This document shows positions 2,926 to 64,000 of a DNA stretch of 64,000 nucleotides, piece by piece (the first letter of the stretch is position 1; every line of letters begins with the position of its first letter). The stretch spans positions 43,152,001-43,216,000 of the forward strand of contig OY740796.1 in the NCBI GenBank assembly GCA_963514005.1. Reading direction: 5' to 3'. The stretch is from Raja brachyura (Eukaryota). The translations under genes and the position numbers were made by a program. The notes below the pieces were generated by a model that ran no database searches, was not told where the DNA came from, and saw only the letters and a program-made list of their open reading frames with translations.

Positions 2926-3015
2926 CAACAACTTCAGGAGTTTTATAAGAAACAGCAAGAACAGTTACATCTACAGCTTCTGCAGCAACAGCATGCAGGG
3001 AAACCTACAAAAGAG
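2926..3015 (+). CDS. FOXP1: FOXP1-like internal exon, Q-rich region ([30 protein letters not shown])
   Basis: Branch-like CTAAC at 2901, poly-T tract, CAG acceptor ending 2925, donor GAG|GTATGT; 90 nt, phase 0-0; the peptide is the [16 protein letters not shown] motif. Confidence 0.92.
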
Positions 3016-10384: not shown

Positions 10385-10594
10385 GTGTGAGAAGAAACCG
10401 CAGATGCTGGTATAAACCGAAGATAGACACCAAAATCTGGAGTAACTCAGCGGGACCGGCAGCATTTTTTGGAGAGAAGGAATGGGTGACGTTTCGGGTC
10501 GAGATTCTTCTTCAGAGTCTAAAACGTCACCCATTCCGTCTCTTCAGGGATGCTGCCTGTCCCGCTGAGTTGCTCCAGATTTTTGTGTTCATCT
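10385..10594. mobile_element. Palindromic Penelope-derived short element
   Basis: Inverted arms GGAGTAACTCAGCGGGAC..GAATGGGTGACGTTT / AAACGTCACCCATTC..GTCCCGCTGAGTTGCTCC; minus-strand CTGAAGA...GAAACGTC. Confidence 0.8.
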
Positions 10595-10756
10595 GAGCTT
10601 TAAATAAAAAGTGTTATAGGTATATACCTTCATGATAGTTTAATTCAGTGACTCCAGATGCCTGCATCCTTCCCCCGCCCAACTGTACGTGGTAATCTTA
10701 TTCATCAATTTCCCCTGAACCTTTCTACTACCTTAAATTAACACATTCAACTTGTT

Positions 10757-13038: not shown

Positions 13039-13098
13039 TGGAACAAGCCAGAACTCTGCCAGATTGACAATCATCCATGTGTTAGAATGTCTGAATGT

Positions 13099-13138
13099 GT
13101 GGGTCTGAAGAAGGGTCTCGACCCGAAACGTCGCCCAT
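13099..13138 (+). ncRNA. Putative minimal type I hammerhead ribozyme in a Penelope-derived repeat
   Basis: GTGGGT-CTGAAGA-A-GGGT(CTCG)ACCC-GAAA-CG-TC-GCCCAT: helix I GUGGGU/GCCCAU, CUGANGA and GAAA core boxes, helix II, palindromic ACGU in place of helix III, GUC cleavage triplet. Confidence 0.7.
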
Positions 13139-13267
13139 CTCCTTCGCTCCTTAGATGCTGCTGCACCCGTTGAGTTTCTCCAGTGTTTTGTGTAACCATC
13201 CATGTGTTATTGTTCCTTGTGTATGGAGGACCTGCAATGAAAATTGTGGATGACCCAACTTATGTAA

Positions 13268-13530
13268 TAGAGTCATAGAGTGATACTGTGTGGAAACAGG
13301 CCCTTTGGCCCAACTTGCCCTCACCGCCCAACATGTCCCATCTGTACTTCTCCCACCTGTCTGTGTTTGGTCTATATCCCTCCAAATCTGCCCTATCCAT
13401 GTAGCTGTCCAAATTGGGATAGTCCCAGCCTCAACTACCTCCTCTGGCACCCACCAACCTTTGCATGAAAAAGTTACCCCTCAGGTTCCCATTAAATCTT
13501 TTCCCCTTCACCTTAAAATGATGTTTCCTA
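13268..13530 (-). mobile_element. CR1 3' fragment (tail type shared with the SINE)
   Basis: AGTCATAGAG..TGGAAACAGGCCCTTTGGCCC..CTCAGGTTCCCATTAAATCTTTTCCCC. Confidence 0.75.
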
Positions 13531-16455: not shown

Positions 16456-17257
16456 GTGTGCATACAGCATTAGGGGAAGATCTGACTGTTTTTGAGCAGC
16501 AAAGTAAAAGGAAATGCACTCCGTTGAGTCTATATTTCATGATTTCAAGCTTCTTGTCCATGGCAGCACTCGGAAGTGACCACCCCCTTTACCTGTAGCC
16601 TCCGTAATTGAGATCAACCTTTAAGTTGACATTGCCAGTGGTAGATTTCATTGTCTACGATGATTACTACGTGTCCTTGCAATTGGCACTGCAACATCTG
16701 GGCTCATTGCAAATAAAGTTACCCACTGGTGGATCCTTTAGCTTGAGGAACATTTAGCAGCAGTACTCATGCAGAAATAGTACAGAGAAGTTCACAGCAC
16801 ACAAGAGGGAAACTCAACTGCACAGCATGCAAGACACTTGACTGCCACAGCAGAATTCAATAAAATTAATTTAATAACGATAATACTTCCATTTTATATA
16901 AGCTTGTTGAGCTGCCTCAGTGCATCTCACATAATGGCCTACTTTTGCGATGCAGGGGAAACTTTTTTTTAACGCATTAACGTTTTAATCAATTTTGCAA
17001 TGTTTTTTGCGCTCGACATTTTATTGCATTTCCATGACTTAATCTGCTCTTCCTCCATGCGTATGATGCACTTTATAATTTTTAAGGGACAAGACAATTT
17101 GTTTTCTGCAATTGCTGGTCCCATTTTCAGAGGGGCAACTATACAGGGTTTCAATTATTTCCTCAATATAAGGTAGAACAGATGACTGTTGTCATTACCT
17201 TATGATAAAACATTTTAATGTCTAATGGGCCGTTAATCTAACTTTAATCTGATGCTA

Positions 17258-17406
17258 GACGCAAAATGTTGGAGTAACTCAGCGGGACAGGCAGCATCTC
17301 TGGCGAGAAGGAATGGGTGACGTTTCGAGATGCTGCGTGTCCCGCTGAGTTACCCCAGCATTTTGTGTCTATCTTCGATTTAAACCAGCATCTGCAGTTC
17401 TTATCC
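17258..17406. mobile_element. Palindromic Penelope-derived short element with deleted centre
   Basis: GGAGTAACTCAGCGGGACAGGCAGCATCTC / GAGATGCTGCGTGTCCCGCTGAGTTACCCC. Confidence 0.8.
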
Positions 17407-20570: not shown

Positions 20571-21920
20571 CACCTTGAGTCTAGATCTTCTGTTTATACG
20601 GCAGACATAGGAAAGCAGGTGGCTTGGCATGTGCAATAACAAGCATGCTAATTTTCATGATACTCCCTTGAAAATCTACCACTCATTTGAGGTCATTCAC
20701 AGCGTGGACCCTACCCAAAGACCAGGTTTTGACCAAATGATTTAGACCTGTTTTTATGCTAACCAAATAGCTGTCATTTCATTGACTGTCTCCAGGAAAC
20801 TTGAACTATTTGAGTTGTCCAACTTAGGTTTCCTAGTTATTCATCTCCCTAACTACCTCCCTGCCCCGGTTTTAATGCCCCTACCGCTTATCCGTGAGAG
20901 TCTCCCAGTAATCCCATCTGCCAACCTCCCCTACCCTCAGCATGGTCCCAGTTTCCACTTGGCCTGAAGAAGGGTCTTGACGTGAAACATCACCCATTCC
21001 TTCTCTGCAGTTCCTTCCTAACCAGTTCCTACTTCCTGTTTTCTGCAACTGACAGGAGATTGTAGAAGAATGGCCATATGTATCAATTTATTCAGGTAAG
21101 GCTATTCCACGGTGCAAAATACTCTCTTGATTCAAAGTTAATGAAAATATAGATCTGTACACTCTTTCCAACGCAGACGGATTGGAGAGATGAATTTAGA
21201 GCACCTTCCAATTGTTACTCTCATCCAATCTCCTTAAACTATATTTACTGCTCAAAGGGGCACGTTTTTTCGGCATCAATTGCCCACCTTCAAAATTAAA
21301 CATTATGAAGAGAATGAAAATTAATTATTTTGATGGCAATCAATGTTTACTTTTTCAATTTTATGTGTAAAGGCCAGCACATTTTGTAAAACACGGGTGA
21401 AGCTCGGTCAAAAAACAAGTGGAAAATAAGTCATTAAGAATTGAAGTTGAATCAAAGAGAGCCTCAAGATTTATTGGCCAAGCATCATTTGATCTTTTTT
21501 TTAAATACAATGCAGAACCTTGAATTTAAAAGTTTTAATCAGTCAACTATTTGGATGTTTCAAAATCCATAGGGGATCTCTGATAAAACCAGATGAGGCA
21601 TGCCATATGATTAATCTTAACCGATTTGTCTAGAGAATTTGTATAATCTCTCTGTTACAGCATCCAGTCTTTTTGAAATTTGTTTCAAGATTGCTGAATC
21701 ACAGCTTCACTCAGTCAATTTGACGTATTATTTGCTCCTTATGTGAAGACAACCTCATTGACATCTAGTCACTAGTTTGGATCTGGGTACATTCTTCCCC
21801 TTCTCGCATCCACAAGCTTGTAAACTCTAGATAAGGAAAATTACTCGATTAACAAATGTTTTTCGTACATAAATTGTACATAGTGTAGATTGTGCTAATG
21901 ATCATTTCTTGATAAAGTTA

Positions 21921-22195: not shown

Positions 22196-22356
22196 TAAGT
22201 TACTCAGCGGGTCAGGCAGCATCTCTGGAGAAAAAGGATGGATGATGTTCCCTTCGTCTGACCTGAAGAGGGTTCCGCCCGAAACATCACCCATCCTTTT
22301 TCTCAGGAGATGCTGCCTGACCCGCTGAGTTACTCCAGCACTTTGTGTCTATCTTT
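22196..22356. mobile_element. Palindromic Penelope-derived element with plus-strand hammerhead-like core
   Basis: CTGAAGA-GGGTTCCGCCC-GAAACATC at 22263 between inverted arms. Confidence 0.75.
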
Positions 22357-23153
22357 TTGTATATGAAAGTGTCTGGGCCGTTCGATTAGAGGTATGACTT
22401 ATCCAGAAACGATCACTGGCACAATCTACCTTGGGTACAAAATGAATGATTCATGCACGAAAAATATTTGTTAATAGTTATTTCCTTATCAGAGTTTACA
22501 AGCTTGTAGACGCGAGAAATGAGGAAGAAGGCATACAGATCCAAATTAGTAACTCACAGTTTATGACTGATATCAATGAGGTTGTCTTCACATAGCAAGC
22601 AATTGATACATCAAATTGACTGAGTAATGCTGTGATTCTGAAATCTTGGAATAGTTTTCAAACTGACTGGATGTTGTAACGGAGAGATTATACGACTTCT
22701 CGAGACAAATCGGTTAAGATTAATCACGTAGCTTTCTTCATTTGCACCTTGCCAGTAGAAATGGAAGTTAGTCAGCAACCTACAACCTTGGTTGAAAACT
22801 CACAACCACGTGAAGCACAGTATAATTTAAAAAATACAAAGAATTAGACAAGGTGCTCAGCGGGCCAGAAGGCATCTCTGGAGCATATGGATAGGTAGCC
22901 TTTTGGGTGTTGGGTGAAATTTCAATAGATGTAATTTCAGACCGGACATAAAACTGCTTCCTGTAACAATTTCAGACACACGGCCAGGTTCCTATTAAAT
23001 TTTTCCCCTCCTCACCTTAAGTAGGTGTTGCCATTTTGCAAACACAAGACAAGTGGTTTCATCAGTGTGCGTGAATATCAGCAATCTTTCGATCGTCTCG
23101 ATCATGACATTTCTCCCAGATGCACACCAAGGGCCAGGCTTCTTATTCTAGAA

Positions 23154-23352
23154 TGTGCCGGAAAGAACTGCAGATGCTGGTTTAAACCGAAGATAGACAC
23201 AGAATGCTGGAGTAACTCAGCGGGACAGGCAGCATCTCTGGAGAGAAGGAATGGGTGACGTTTTGGGTCGAGACCGTTTTCGAAACGTCACCCATTCTTT
23301 CTCTCCAGAGATGCTGCCTGTTCCGCTGTGTTACTCCAGCATTTTGTACCTA
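23154..23352. mobile_element. Palindromic Penelope-derived short element
   Basis: ~70-bp inverted arms; flanks TTCTTATTCTAGAA (23140) / TTCTCTTTCTAGAA (23353). Confidence 0.82.
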
Positions 23353-23895
23353 TTCTCTTTCTAGAAGATTACTTTTGCCACCTGCTGCTGTGATCTTCGA
23401 ACAGCAGAGCACGTGTGTTTCCTGACCACCTCTCACCCATTCTTGCCCAGAATCTCCCTGTGGTTCGCTTTCTAGACGATTAAAATGTTAACACTCCCTG
23501 TCAAAAACTTAGTGCCATCTCCCTCTCCTTGGCAGCCTTCTCTCTCTCTTCCCTGGCAGCCGTAATGTGTGTTAGTGCTGTTTGGCTGCCACGGGGAGTG
23601 TTCCCTGAAGGTCTGGTGTGCATCAGGCAGTGTTCCATAGCAAAGCTGTGCTAAGTCGGACACACTCCTATCTGGAATTACACTGATCTTGTTTCAGCAT
23701 CAATAATTTTTGTAAATCGCCGTTGCACTGTGCCGAACATATTTATTTGCCCAATTCCACCAGCCTTTTTTGTGAGAGATCCAATTGGACACGTGTAACA
23801 CACCAAATAAAGGATGAATCCCGATTTTCAGGTTTGGTGGATCCGCATTGGCCCAGAGTTTGTGCTCAAAATACAGAACAGATAGTCCAGAAGTA

Positions 23896-27247: not shown

Positions 27248-27404
27248 CAACAGCAACCACTGGCATCCCACCACTTAGCCCTTCAGCAGCAGCTTCTACA
27301 GGTGCAGCAGCTACAGCAACAGCATATCATGACAATGCAGCGACATGGCTTGCTTCCATTACAGTCTGGACAGCCGGCTCTCTCTCTGCAGACGTTGGCA
27401 CAAG
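27248..27404 (+). CDS. FOXP1: FOXP1-like exon (QQQPLASHHLALQQQLLQVQQLQQQHIMTMQRHGLLPLQSGQPALSLQTLAQ-G)
   Basis: TTTTAG acceptor, AAG|GTAAGT donor, 157 nt, phase 0-1; resembles FOXP1 [42 protein letters not shown]. Confidence 0.92.
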
Positions 27405-35783: not shown

Positions 35784-35991
35784 ATACCTTCTGACTTAGA
35801 TCCTGACTTTTGGGGCAATACCATGCCCCCACTTATTTTCCCTCTGACCTCATCACCCACTCATTCCCACGTTAGAATCTTCTACCAGCCAGCTGAACTA
35901 AGGGTGGTTTACAGTGGCCAATTGTTGGTCAGTGTGGGCAAGATGGGCCGAAGGGCCTGCTTTCATGCTGTATGACACTGATTGTACACTG

Positions 35992-36163
35992 GGGTACACA
36001 AAAGGCTGGAGAAACTCAGCAGGTGCAGCAGCATCTAAGGAGCGAAGGAGATGGGCGTCGTTTCGGGTCGAGACCCTTCTTCAGATAGATGCTGCTGCAC
36101 CCGCTGAGTTTCTCCAGCCTTTTGTGTACCCTCGATTCTCCAGCATCTGCAGTTCCTTCTTTA
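35992..36163. mobile_element. Palindromic Penelope-derived element with perfect 17-bp TSD
   Basis: ACACTGATTGTACACTG at 35975-35991 and 36164-36180; minus-strand CTGAAGAAGGGTCTCGACCCGAAAC. Confidence 0.88.
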
Positions 36164-40440: not shown

Positions 40441-41188
40441 GTAAATGGCGTCTAGTTGGGAGAAAGGGAAGTACAACGGGATCTGGGGGTCCTTGTTCAT
40501 CAGTCTATGAAAGTAAGCATGCAGGTACAGCAGGCAGTGAAGAAAGCGAATGCCACGTTGGCCTTTATAACAAGAGGAGTCGAATATAGGAGCAAAGAGA
40601 TCCTTCTGCAGTTGCACAGAGCCCTAGTGAGACCACACCTGGAGTATTGTGTGCACTTTGGGTCCCCTAATTTGAGGAAGGACATTCTTGCTATTGAGGG
40701 AGTGCAGCATAGGTTTACAAGGTTAATTCCTGGGATGGCGGGACTGTCATATGCTGAGAGAATGGAGCGGCTGGGCTGTACACTCTGGAGTTTAGAAGGA
40801 TGAGAGGATATCTCATTGAAACACATAAGATTGTTAAAGGTTTGGACACGCTAGAGGCAGGAAACATGTTCCTGATGTTGGGGGAGTCCAGAACCAGGGG
40901 CCACAGTTTAAGAATAAGGAGTAAGCCATTTAGAACGGAGACGAGGAAACACTTTTTCTCACAGAGAGTTGTGAGTCTGTGGAATTCTCTGCCTCAGAGG
41001 GCGGTGGAGGCAGGTTCTCCGGATGCTTTCAAGAGAGAGCTAGATAGGGCTCTTAAAAATAGCGGAGTCAGGGGATATGGGGAGAAGGCAGGACCGGGGT
41101 ACTGATTGGGGATGATCAGCCATGATCGCATTAAATGGCGGTGCTGGCTCGGAGGGCCGAATGGCCTACTCCTGCACCTATTGTCTAT
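40441..41188 (+). mobile_element. 5'-truncated CR1-clade (HER1-like) LINE: RT C-terminus and 3' UTR, frameshifted
   Basis: ORFs 40456-40803 (RDLGVLVH...LVRPHLEYC...QHRFTRLIPG) and 40800-41105 (SRTRGHSLRI...FFSQRVVSLWNSLP) are CR1 ORF2 C-terminal motifs; tail CCTATTGTCTAT; inserted into an older CR1 tail (40400-41240). Confidence 0.92.
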
Positions 41189-49755: not shown

Positions 49756-50794
49756 GTTAAGAGAGATTTGGGTTGCAGAGATTTGGTTGTGCAAGTCTTG
49801 GGGATTTCTGAATTTAAATCCCATCACATCAGGCAAGAACATCATATAATGCCCTGCTGACTTTGAGAGGTGCATATGAACTTCTTGGGAACATGGAAAG
49901 TATAGACTGTTTATTCTCTTAACATTGATTAATCCATAGTTAGAAAGGTCATGACTGTTTGGTTACCTCACTCCAGCACCTGCTTTGCTCCATATCCCTT
50001 GACAACTTTTGTTATCGAAAGTCCAAGAATCTCAGATTAAAATTTGACGACTGACCTAATGTTAATTGCCATTCATGAAGAAAGTTCCTGATTTCTGCTG
50101 CTCTGTTCTCAGCTTCATACCCAACACAAATACTTCTGTGTTACTTCTTTTTAATACCGTAAAAAGTTAATTCAAATCAGCCCTTAACCTAAATACGCAT
50201 TATTATGCCTTTCTTAACTATATTACTAGAATGTAATTTGATGCTTGTGGTCAATCATTAGAAATAAATGATTCTGAAAGGCAAATGATCTCGAAATGTC
50301 AGAGCAGAATGTCAAAACCTGTCATTCCATTTCATCCCATCCCACAGCATGCTGTCAGATTCATTAGGAATTTGTTTTGTAAGATTAGCTTGTAAAATCA
50401 GATTTTTAAAAATAGATTTTAAAGTCGAAGAATCGTGAGCCTTTCCCTTACTGATAAATAAATGGATATCTTGCATCCATATCGTCATAGGGAAGATGTT
50501 ACAGAACTATGTTCCTCTTGGTCGTGATTCATGAGCATGTAATTTTATCTGTGGTATTAATAATAATTTAGAACCAACTTGGAATAATCAATTAATTTTT
50601 ACCGACTGGAACTATGGGTGACTATTTTCACATTCGATGCAATGTGTACAAAATTGTGTACAAAAGTACATTTACTTTCACTATGTGTTTCATCTCCAAG
50701 GTTCCAGTTAAACTCATTTGCCTAACAATAAAACAATGTGCTGACCTCTACAGCTCCAACATTTGTGGACACAATTGTACAGCATATTGCAAAG

Positions 50795-51182
50795 AGGGGA
50801 AACCTCATTGAAACATACAGAATAGTGAAAGGCTTGGATAGAGTGGATGTGGAGAGGATGTTTCCACTAGTGGGAGAGTCTAGGACTAGAGGTCATAGCC
50901 TCAGAATTAAAGGACGTTCTTTTAGAAAGGAGACAAGGAGGAATTTCTTTAATCAGAGGATCGTGAATCTGTGGAATTCTTTGCCACAGAAGGCTGCGGA
51001 GGCAAAGTCATTGGATGTATATAAAGCAGAGACAGATAGATTCTTGAATAGTATGGGTATCGGAGGATATGGGGAAAAGGCAGGAGAATGGAGTTGGGAG
51101 GGCAAGATCGACCAACATTGATTGTTGGCGGAGTAGGCATGACGGGCTGAATGGCCTAATTCTACTCCTATCACTTATGATA
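50795..51182 (+). mobile_element. CR1 3' fragment
   Basis: RGNLIETYRIVKGLDRVD...SRTRGHSLRI...VNLWNSLP. Confidence 0.88.
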
Positions 51183-56599: not shown

Positions 56600-57719
56600 G
56601 TTAGGTGGCACTTCCATCTGAAATTACCTGGTGAAGAGGGGTAGGAACTGGGCCGGTGCAAAGGAGTGAATCACTTTGGGGCTTGGAGCGGAAGGAAAAG
56701 CAAAAGGCAGCAAGACAGAATGGGGATTTACTGTGGAGTTCAATAAACTTCTCATAGTGTTCATGCGAAAGGTCATTCCACTTAATGTTAACAGGTGGCA
56801 GATTACATCATGATCATTATTCTGCTACACTCCTGTAATTCTGTAAATGAACGAATCAATTATGGTGGAAAGATCACCTTATTTCTTGCTTGAAACACGT
56901 ATTATGCAGTCTCTGAAGGTATCCAGCCAGCAGCAGTATCATTCAACATCAATATATGAGAATTAATTGAGCATGACTGGGCCTTTAGTTGCCACTTGCA
57001 ACTTCAGTCAATATGTGTTGATGCTGGATAATGACAAGGTAGTGGCTCATAGTAGGACAGAGTGAAAGATGCACACTGTGTCTCGGTAATAGTCATAATT
57101 AGGGAAAATATTTTTTGTATAATCTATGCCAACAATCATTGATTTAATAATAACGTTAAATATTGCAGTAAAAGATGTAATCCATTAAATTTGATTCCGA
57201 GTGTAAATATGATGCCTCGAAGGGAATATTTCATTATTAATCTTACAAGTGTTGATAAATAGTCAGAGTTAAATTAATGAATAATGAAGGTTTTTACATT
57301 TAATTTCTTTAATTGTTTTATAATCCATCTAGTTTATTAAAATGATATGTTTGAACATTAAGGAGAAACATAAAATTACTTCAAAATAAAACATTCAGAT
57401 AGGCAATGCTACAAGTAACATGAGCCATGTGCTGAAATTATAGAACCAACCTATAACATTGCTTGTTATGCCTATCCTTTGTCATTCTTTGCTACGACAA
57501 TACAGTTTAGGTTTATCCCACACTGTTTCAGGGAATTTGTAGGTTAAGTTTTCTTATGATTAAATAAGTTATTGAATGCAATTTTAAGGAAAGTTGCAGA
57601 AATGTAATGCCTTTCCTCATGTGAGAATAATTCATTGTTACTTTCTTTTACAAGTCTTTCAGTAACCCTTTCCATTTTTCTTTGTATCTTGATGTGTTTG
57701 TTAGTGAGCTTTACTTTGA

Positions 57720-58150
57720 GTTTTACAAGGTTAATTCCCGGGATGGCGGGACTGTCATATGCTGAGAGAATGAAGCAGCTGGGCTTGTACACTCTGGAGT
57801 TTAAAAAGAGAGAGGGGATCTTATTGAAACATATGAGATTATTAAGGGTTTGGACACACTAGAGGCAGGAAAAATGTTCCCGATGTTGGGGACTCCAGAA
57901 CAAGCGGCAACAGTTTAAGAATAAGGGGTTGGCCATTTAGAACGGAGATGAGGAAACACTTTTTCTCACAGAGAGTTGTGAGTCTGTGGAATTCTCTGCC
58001 TCAGAGGGCGGTGGAGGCAGGTTCTCTCGATGCTTTCAAGAGAGAGCTAGATAGGCTCTTAAAGATAGCGGAGTTAGGGGATAAGGCAGGAATGGGGTAA
58101 CTGATTGGGGATGATCAGCCATGATCACACTGAATGGCGGTGCTGGCTCT
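57720..58150 (+). mobile_element. CR1/HER1 3' fragment, same subfamily as 40441-41188
   Basis: FTRLIPGMAGLSYAERM; closely colinear with 40715-41150. Confidence 0.9.
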
Positions 58151-63542: not shown

Positions 63543-64000
63543 ATTTCCTAACGCAATATACAATCCTAACCAGGGATGAATATATACAGTATATAACATT
63601 TTTAAAAAGGTATTTTTTCTCTGTCAGTTTTCAAAGTAGCAAGAGGATTTTTCGGTTGCCTCAATGGACCTGGATCAAAATTTTGACATTTAACCAGAAA
63701 CTATTTTTGAAAGATTGGATCGTGTTTTTAGATATTCAGTTTCCAGCATTTTGGACATCTGAGGTTCTGGTTGGGTGAGGGAAGGTTTTAGTGCATTCAC
63801 ATGTTTCCAGCAGCTTTTTACATGACGCATATTAAAATATTCTAAGAACAAATCAATGAACTTAACATCATATCGTATTAGCATGTATTACATACACTTT
63901 GCTGGGGAATGCATCTATGGTGCAATCATCACAGCCTTTGCTAGTTAAATATGCATTGGATTTTTTTTAAAGGCGTGTTATACAGATTATTTGTGTTTGT

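Follow-up and report, generated by a model that had tools for sequence, protein, structure and literature searches.

A minimal hammerhead motif in a FOXP1 intron of Raja brachyura lies within a short copy of a Penelope-like element

The presence of a complete hammerhead motif on the sense strand of a FOXP1 intron in the skate Raja brachyura raises the question of whether it may cut the pre-mRNA of its host gene or should be regarded as the remnant of a retroelement. An earlier note, made from the letters of a 64,000-nt stretch of contig OY740796.1 (the window), had described a minimal type I hammerhead of the type known from Penelope-like elements (PLEs) at positions 13099-13138, and had proposed that, if paired with a second copy, it could cut the 24-kb intron. 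The coordinates and letters given there all agree with the sequence. We are rather confident that the motif is part of a short PLE leader copy flanked by a target-site duplication (TSD), that its helix I has been lengthened by filler, and that it likely does no meaningful cutting of FOXP1 RNA. Regulation of FOXP1 by a ribozyme would matter if true, but the evidence favours an ordinary retroelement remnant.

The hammerhead motif and its parent element

The intron containing the hammerhead (3016-27247, 24,232 nt) is bordered by a Q-rich coding exon matching the FOXP1 protein (2926-3015, + strand) and by a further FOXP1 coding exon identified by protein matches (27248-27404, + strand), while FOXP-CC exons follow further downstream at about 42.7 and 48.8 kb in the window. 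All 68 protein matches of the exon at 27248 carry PF16159, the named ones being FOXP1, and the best matches (85-94%) are to cartilaginous fishes. This exon mapping places FOXP1 on the + strand and bears out the sense orientation claimed for the motif.

The core of the motif (13105-13132, + strand like all its parts) is composed of the CUGAAGA box (13105-13111), an extra, bulged A (13112), a helix II of 4 bp with a 4-nt loop (13113-13124), the GAAA box (13125-13128) and the letters CG-UC (13129-13132), with cleavage predicted after C13132. The place of helix III is indeed taken by the palindrome ACGU (13128-13131), which represents the palindromic positions 15.1-16.1 and 15.2-16.2, and G13113 and C13124 form the G10.1-C11.1 pair. 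Helix I consists of 6 bp including two GU pairs, formed by a 5' arm (13099-13104), of which only 13103-13104 derive from the element and 13099-13102 are junction filler, and an element-derived 3' arm (13133-13138), in which C13136 is a minority variant of a position occupied by T in the family; both letters pair. With its CUGANGA and GAAA boxes and a UH cleavage triplet, the motif is a PLE minimal hammerhead by every sequence feature, its helix I lying within the range of about 4-6 bp but reaching it through filler. For the isolated 40-mer, a structure with helices I and II is predicted (-12.8 kcal/mol), which is not more stable than those of shuffled sequences (z -1.14; 32 of 200 shuffles equally good), and a Rfam scan of the 64-kb window with E values up to 5 matched no hammerhead family.

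The 28-nt core is found in 52,217 exact copies in the 2.7-Gb genome, compared to 0 for a reversed control, which rules out a chance motif, and a 30-mer from the 3' part of the leader recurs in 72,424 exact matches. About 20 related leader pieces are present in the window on both strands, and the copy in the FOXP1 intron is the only one among them with a complete core, as expected from its earlier description as the best one. Long copies extend upstream into the end of a reading frame for RT and GIY-YIG domains, and a protein search retrieved near-identical copies with frames of up to 1,226 codons as well as a tandem array. Full-length frames of 1,203-1,204 codons are intact at three loci (L152, L153 and L154), whereas the array (C18:46.36-46.38 Mb, L149-L151) contains five cores in units of 3,965 bp, which share a frameshift (325 + 1,033 codons). 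The core, which is identical in these full-length elements, is located about 230 nt past the stop codon and about 163 nt ahead of the ATG. The Pfam matches of the frame lie below the curated cut-offs (RVT_1, E 2e-4; GIY-YIG, E 2e-3), and the protein contains a Cys-X4-Cys-X2-Cys linker ahead of the nuclease domain. Two end points, separated by about 35 nt, are seen among the copies and delimit the PLE tail: the distal one, at +126 to +139, is found in 28 of 142 copies, and the majority of the remainder stop near +85 to +99. An arrangement in tandem, partial copies in inverted orientation and a tail of 30-40 nt are hallmarks of insertion by endonuclease-bearing PLEs, and the parent is, by its Cys linker, such an element of the Neptune type. 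As judged from the sequences, the family looks young and recently active. No description of it in cartilaginous fishes was found in the literature covered, and the family may already be catalogued.

PLE hammerheads as a class are covered, as far as the accessible parts of these sources go, in a review (PMC6765202) and a recent preprint (bioRxiv 10.64898/2026.07.22.740005). The skate motif shares with the minimal hammerheads of metazoan PLEs, as described in the accessible part of Cervera and De la Pena (2014; PMC4209133), the conserved boxes, the extra nucleotide after position 9 and before position 10.1, the G10.1-C11.1 pair, the palindrome instead of helix III, the location in the pLTR of an element with RT and GIY-YIG domains, and the occurrence as mostly solitary dispersed copies with some close opposite-strand pairs. 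It differs in its helix II (4 bp versus 7-8 in Schistosoma families), its native helix I (2 bp versus typically 4-5, with 2 in D. virilis) and its copy number, which exceeds the 4,000-9,000 copies reported for coelacanth and Xenopus; cartilaginous fishes were not found among the hosts named in that part of the paper. According to the consulted sections of Craig et al. (2021; PMC8557442), elements of the Neptune clade likewise have a single RT ORF with the Cys-X4-Cys-X2-Cys linker and a GIY-YIG domain at the C terminus, in which two cysteines lie between its GIY- and YIG-like motifs; they also leave partial copies, both tandem and inverted, and possess a tail. The skate element departs from them by a long Pro-rich N-terminal insert, and its assignment to the clade, made by the linker, is provisional, a Cys-rich linker between RT and EN being common to Neptune and Nematis (PMC8557442). 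It also resembles Poseidon of Anolis carolinensis, as far as portrayed in the parts of Frangieh et al. (2024; PMC11167929) at hand, whose units are likewise arranged in tandem, carry a hammerhead in the pLTR close to where the ORF starts and have two 3' ends separated by 30-40 nt, corresponding to the tail, and whose RNA is inserted from an uncleaved template. Poseidon differs in having the start codon inside the hammerhead, and the skate element has the Cys linker of the Neptune/Nematis type. Finally, the copy resembles the non-LTR retrozymes as outlined in the preprint (bioRxiv 10.64898/2026.07.22.740005) in that a type I hammerhead is carried by a non-coding sequence derived from a PLE, but those form tandem arrays with a ribozyme in each unit, whereas the FOXP1 copy is a solitary sequence of 95 nt with a TSD.

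As a side observation, the native leader of one array unit (L150, -3 to +131) is predicted to pair its tail with the purine run of the core and with about +49 to +57; such a fold, a single-sequence prediction, would hold the ribozyme off until protein binds.

Origin of the short copy and of its helix I

Alignment to the full-length unit delimits the leader copy to 13103-13197 (95 nt, + strand), starting 2 nt before the core and ending at the first of the two 3' end points of the family. It is identical to the full-length element at 91 of 95 bases, the differences being at 13136, 13170, 13184 and 13185. Sequence comparison reveals a TSD of 13 bp on either side (13072-13084 and 13197-13209, both read on the + strand), the first base of the right one being shared with the end of the element. 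Between the left duplication and the element lies an 18-nt junction filler (13085-13102, + strand), a patchwork in which the first 7 nt of the element and a 6-nt piece of the target duplication recur, and whose last base, G13102, is possibly cap-derived. The family boundary at 13103 is also marked by loose ends of the sequences from four public runs. A contig from a public run (X19) covers 13171-13289, but has fewer than 31 bases on the element side, and no empty-site joint was listed among the matches to the public runs.

These boundaries determine how helix I should be regarded. The native helix I has 2 bp in all 19 cores with native upstream sequence, and among the 17 intact cores in a contiguous stretch of 464 kb around FOXP1 it measures at most 2 bp in 16, the FOXP1-intron copy being the only one with 6 bp. 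Genome-wide, 245 exact cores are preceded by an arm capable of 6 bp, and 30 of 30 inspected copies of this class indeed pair 6 bp or more. This number indicates no genome-wide enrichment of helix-forming arms, as about 307 would be expected by chance, a rough value derived from 4,140 copies starting with G which include inversion junctions and A-to-G mutants. Because the native helix is only 2 bp long, the arm consists of filler and the arm class occurs at chance frequency, the 6-bp helix has to be seen as an insertion accident, neither preserved nor enriched. Of the earlier claim of a preserved helix I, the 6 bp are thus present, but the preservation is not, since four of the six bases of the 5' arm are filler. 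Against our reading, the 6-bp helix makes the copy structurally better than the native ribozyme.

Other sources of a longer helix I were considered. An older relative whose native helix is longer was looked for, and a single degenerate candidate turned up; none of six splice donors scanned in the unit would assemble a helix of more than 2 bp. Within the 3,965-nt unit, the 3' arm also has 6-bp complements at four internal sites, none of which adjoins the core.

How such short copies arise may be read from their ends. The 464-kb stretch gave 215 BLAST hits, 184 of them spanning a 3' anchor, whose 5' ends were mapped with gapped alignments. Starts at -9 to +2 of the core were found in 101 of the 184, 20 start further upstream and 62 further in, many of these at inversion junctions. 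Starts at the cleavage site, considered as a possible fossil of in vivo cutting, had to be dismissed, with one copy in 184 starting within 3 nt of it and one in 142 in a second count, the latter an inversion junction. This near absence indicates that the reverse-transcribed template was uncleaved. Genome-wide, where the upstream sequence is non-native, the base ahead of copies starting at -3 is G 2,356 times out of 4,464 (53%, compared to 26% from local composition), and ahead of those starting at -2 it is G 4,140 times out of 7,212 (57%, compared to 29% expected), although the latter count is inflated by A-to-G transitions. The excess of G together with the sharp starts suggests run-off cDNA of a capped RNA beginning at the hammerhead, while untemplated addition of C by the RT would give the same excess. 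The start context of the leader, we assume, resembles the initiator consensus. An extra G marks full-length L1 insertions made from capped RNA (PMC11702581, in the part available), and transcription of Penelope begins inside the pLTR (PMC2377424, likewise in part). The evidence from the extra G for a start site at the core comes from the skate element and was not found in the accessible part of PMC11167929.

We thus propose that a capped element RNA would start about 2-4 nt upstream of the core, and that the RT would prime internally about 95 or 130 nt downstream, at the two 3' ends of the tail. It would then copy the uncleaved leader up to the 5' end of the RNA, often adding a base that templates G, and the short cDNA would be joined to the target through patchwork filler. 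In about 0.5% of the core-intact copies, including that in the FOXP1 intron, the filler pairs by chance with the 3' arm. Any catalytic role of the hammerhead would be confined to tandem full-length element RNA, probably with the assistance of protein, rather than to the scattered copies.

The sharp 5' boundary of the short copies might also be due to splicing at an acceptor just upstream of the core, or to stalling of the RT, a reading which concerns the origin of the family alone and which we consider unlikely. The upstream pLTR does contain a long pyrimidine tract with a CAG ending one base ahead of the core, and in Penelope of D. virilis helix I is bordered on its 5' side by the end of an intron (PMC4209133, in the part covered). 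However, the short copies share no common upstream exon, their boundaries are scattered over -5 to +2 instead of forming a single junction, the excess of G is seen at two different start positions, and the result for the six donors reported above speaks against splicing as well. The insertion junctions, in their tens of thousands, record an uncleaved template RNA with a probable start at the hammerhead. This record bears on the open question of the purpose of PLE hammerheads and takes the in vitro result from Anolis to a genomic scale.

Prospects for cleavage of FOXP1 RNA

According to the accessible part of PMC4209133, monomers of PLE minimal hammerheads are not cleaved and dimers are cleaved at a low level. 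The hammerhead of the Anolis element was cleaved only together with its own protein and was dispensable for insertion, and RNA-seq ends were absent at its site (PMC11167929, in the part consulted). In the FOXP1 intron and the rest of the 64-kb window, no second intact sense copy with core and ACGU was found: among the eight further anchored sense copies of the intron, not one has retained the two together, and neither has a copy at 20964. The nearest upstream intact sense core lies 67 kb away in another intron, beyond the exon at 2926, and has a helix I of 2 bp. Within the sequence covered, which extends downstream to position 64000, no intact partner thus lies close enough on the same RNA for the dimer formation that activity at this locus would require. 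Moreover, the predicted pairing probability of helices I and II drops to 0.01-0.02 in a context of 141-451 nt, because the purine-rich core would pair with the pyrimidine tract of the copy itself; this is an equilibrium model, which ignores co-transcriptional folding.

Two further comparisons address selection. Copies in the coding span of FOXP1 are almost evenly distributed between the strands (49 sense and 45 antisense, the intact ones four each), in a test which is small, with 94 copies of which eight are intact, and blind to an effect limited to the rare 6-bp class. The earlier note would have been refuted by a core no better conserved than its flanks, but the comparison shows the core to be modestly more conserved. 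Its non-CpG sites diverge by 5.3%, compared to 7.7-11.7% for the 3' flank depending on the treatment (109 core-spanning copies, p 0.016 or lower); with polymorphic flank sites left out, the counts are 40/760 versus 360/4,664 (p 0.016), and in the 23 copies with the least alignment bias 6/160 (3.7%) versus 58/934 (6.2%; p 0.28). The majority lines of the subfamilies have the core in common and differ in the downstream sequence. The lower divergence, a point against our reading, implies some constraint on the core, which probably reflects selection on the source elements, for catalysis or for an overlapping promoter, and to which some selection on the copies may contribute.

The proposal that the motif pairs with a second copy and so cuts the intron is therefore unsupported, with no intact sense partner in the intron, a fold lost in context and no depletion on the sense strand. 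An exapted cis-acting ribozyme, which dimerises with a second copy, cuts the 24-kb intron and regulates FOXP1, seems to us the least probable of all readings. It would fit with the sense orientation, with the sole 6-bp helix among the 17 intact cores and with the conservation of the core above the flanks at the family level, but it conflicts with the loss of core or palindrome in the other sense copies of the intron, with the distant location of the nearest intact sense core upstream, with the youth of the copy (96% identity to an active element), with an arm class at chance frequency and with the 50:50 orientation of copies in FOXP1. Occasional cleavage of FOXP1 pre-mRNA as a by-product of no selected function, aided by element protein or by leader RNA acting in trans as a chaperone or ACGU partner, is a somewhat better but still improbable option. 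Introns cut internally can still be spliced, and this would mostly apply to the FOXP1 intron as well. The complete core with its 6-bp helix I and the tens of thousands of potential trans partners argue for it, as does the protein-assisted cutting reported in the available part of PMC11167929. On the other hand, a helix III formed in trans would be limited to 4 bp (the 6-mer duplex reaching about -3.1 kcal/mol), pairing with the pyrimidine tract is predicted to occupy the core, and the copy contains no tail, which is part of the protein-bound region in Anolis (PMC11167929, same part); even tethered dimers are cut poorly (PMC4209133, in the part covered). Very improbable, though slightly less so than exaptation, is a broader scheme in which the element RNA, starting 2-4 nt before the hammerhead, lacks helix I, insertion junctions complete some 245 ribozymes, and the FOXP1 copy, activated by protein or trans leader RNA, cuts nascent FOXP1 RNA wherever the element is expressed. 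The reading as a leader copy with an accidentally extended helix I thus remains the preferred one, and the approximately 245 junction-completed copies provide a test set for the cutting of host pre-mRNAs by such motifs.

Further repeats and a second, telomere-arrayed family

The window also contains head-to-head inverted pairs of PLE leaders at 10413-10622, 17245-17402, 22198-22382, 23183-23383 and 35989-36135, which form long, perfect-looking hairpins. They account for miRNA-like Rfam hits in the window and could serve as substrates for dsRNA formation or editing. The 3' fragments of a LINE, which we take to be CR1/L2-like from its motif, and several SINE-like families occupy much of the FOXP1 introns, with such sequences at 40456-41188, 50732-51121 and 57544-57858.

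The search for GIY-YIG domains also returned a second PLE, unrelated to the hammerhead PLE at the DNA level. It contains two ORFs, an ORF1 of about 600 codons with a weak GDSL/SGNH match (E 0.0017, below the cut-off) and a frame of 760 codons for RT and GIY-YIG domains. It has many relatives at 46-55% identity, and those that carry a name come from bony fishes. The element is present in low copy number, with 118 exact 3' ends genome-wide, 57 of which are directly followed by perfect telomeric repeat. Among 30 inspected 3' ends, telomeric repeats follow in 19 and the next unit in 11, in every case after a brief telomere-like segment belonging to the element, which is reverse-complement telomeric. 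Units of the element are polarised and arrayed in tandem, embedded in (TTAGGG)n tracts that lie for the most part at the ends of chromosomes, with arrays inside terminal repeats at C17:13000-36000 (L163-L165), C19:1-10000 (L168) and C21:1-20000 (L166-L167), and others near the far ends at C8:89.33-89.40 Mb (L083-L095, L213-L222), C14:67.98 Mb (L226) and on C21. The polarity of the arrays reverses between the two chromosome ends, and interstitial copies occur on C1 (0.5 Mb and 151 Mb) and on C13, 1.6 Mb from the end. By analogy, this looks like a telomere attachment in the style of Athena and Coprina, but those elements are endonuclease-less as described in the sources at hand, whereas the skate element combines a nuclease domain with a vertebrate host. 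No description of a telomere-arrayed, endonuclease-bearing PLE was found in the literature searched, the nearest hint being degraded GIY-YIG PLEs of sturgeon bounded by telomere-like repeats (PMC12031113, in its accessible part).

Just upstream of ORF1 of this second family, two copies (L168 and L163) show a hammerhead-like arrangement of CUGAUGA, an extra A, a 4-bp stem and GAAA; its helix I may reach 5 bp, its cleavage triplet departs from the standard, and what follows is probably a short intron. Directly after the array on C17, a GC-rich sequence extends over C17:36000-40000 (L165), whose translations, in our estimation, resemble antisense rRNA frames, so that an rDNA cluster is possibly located at that chromosome end.
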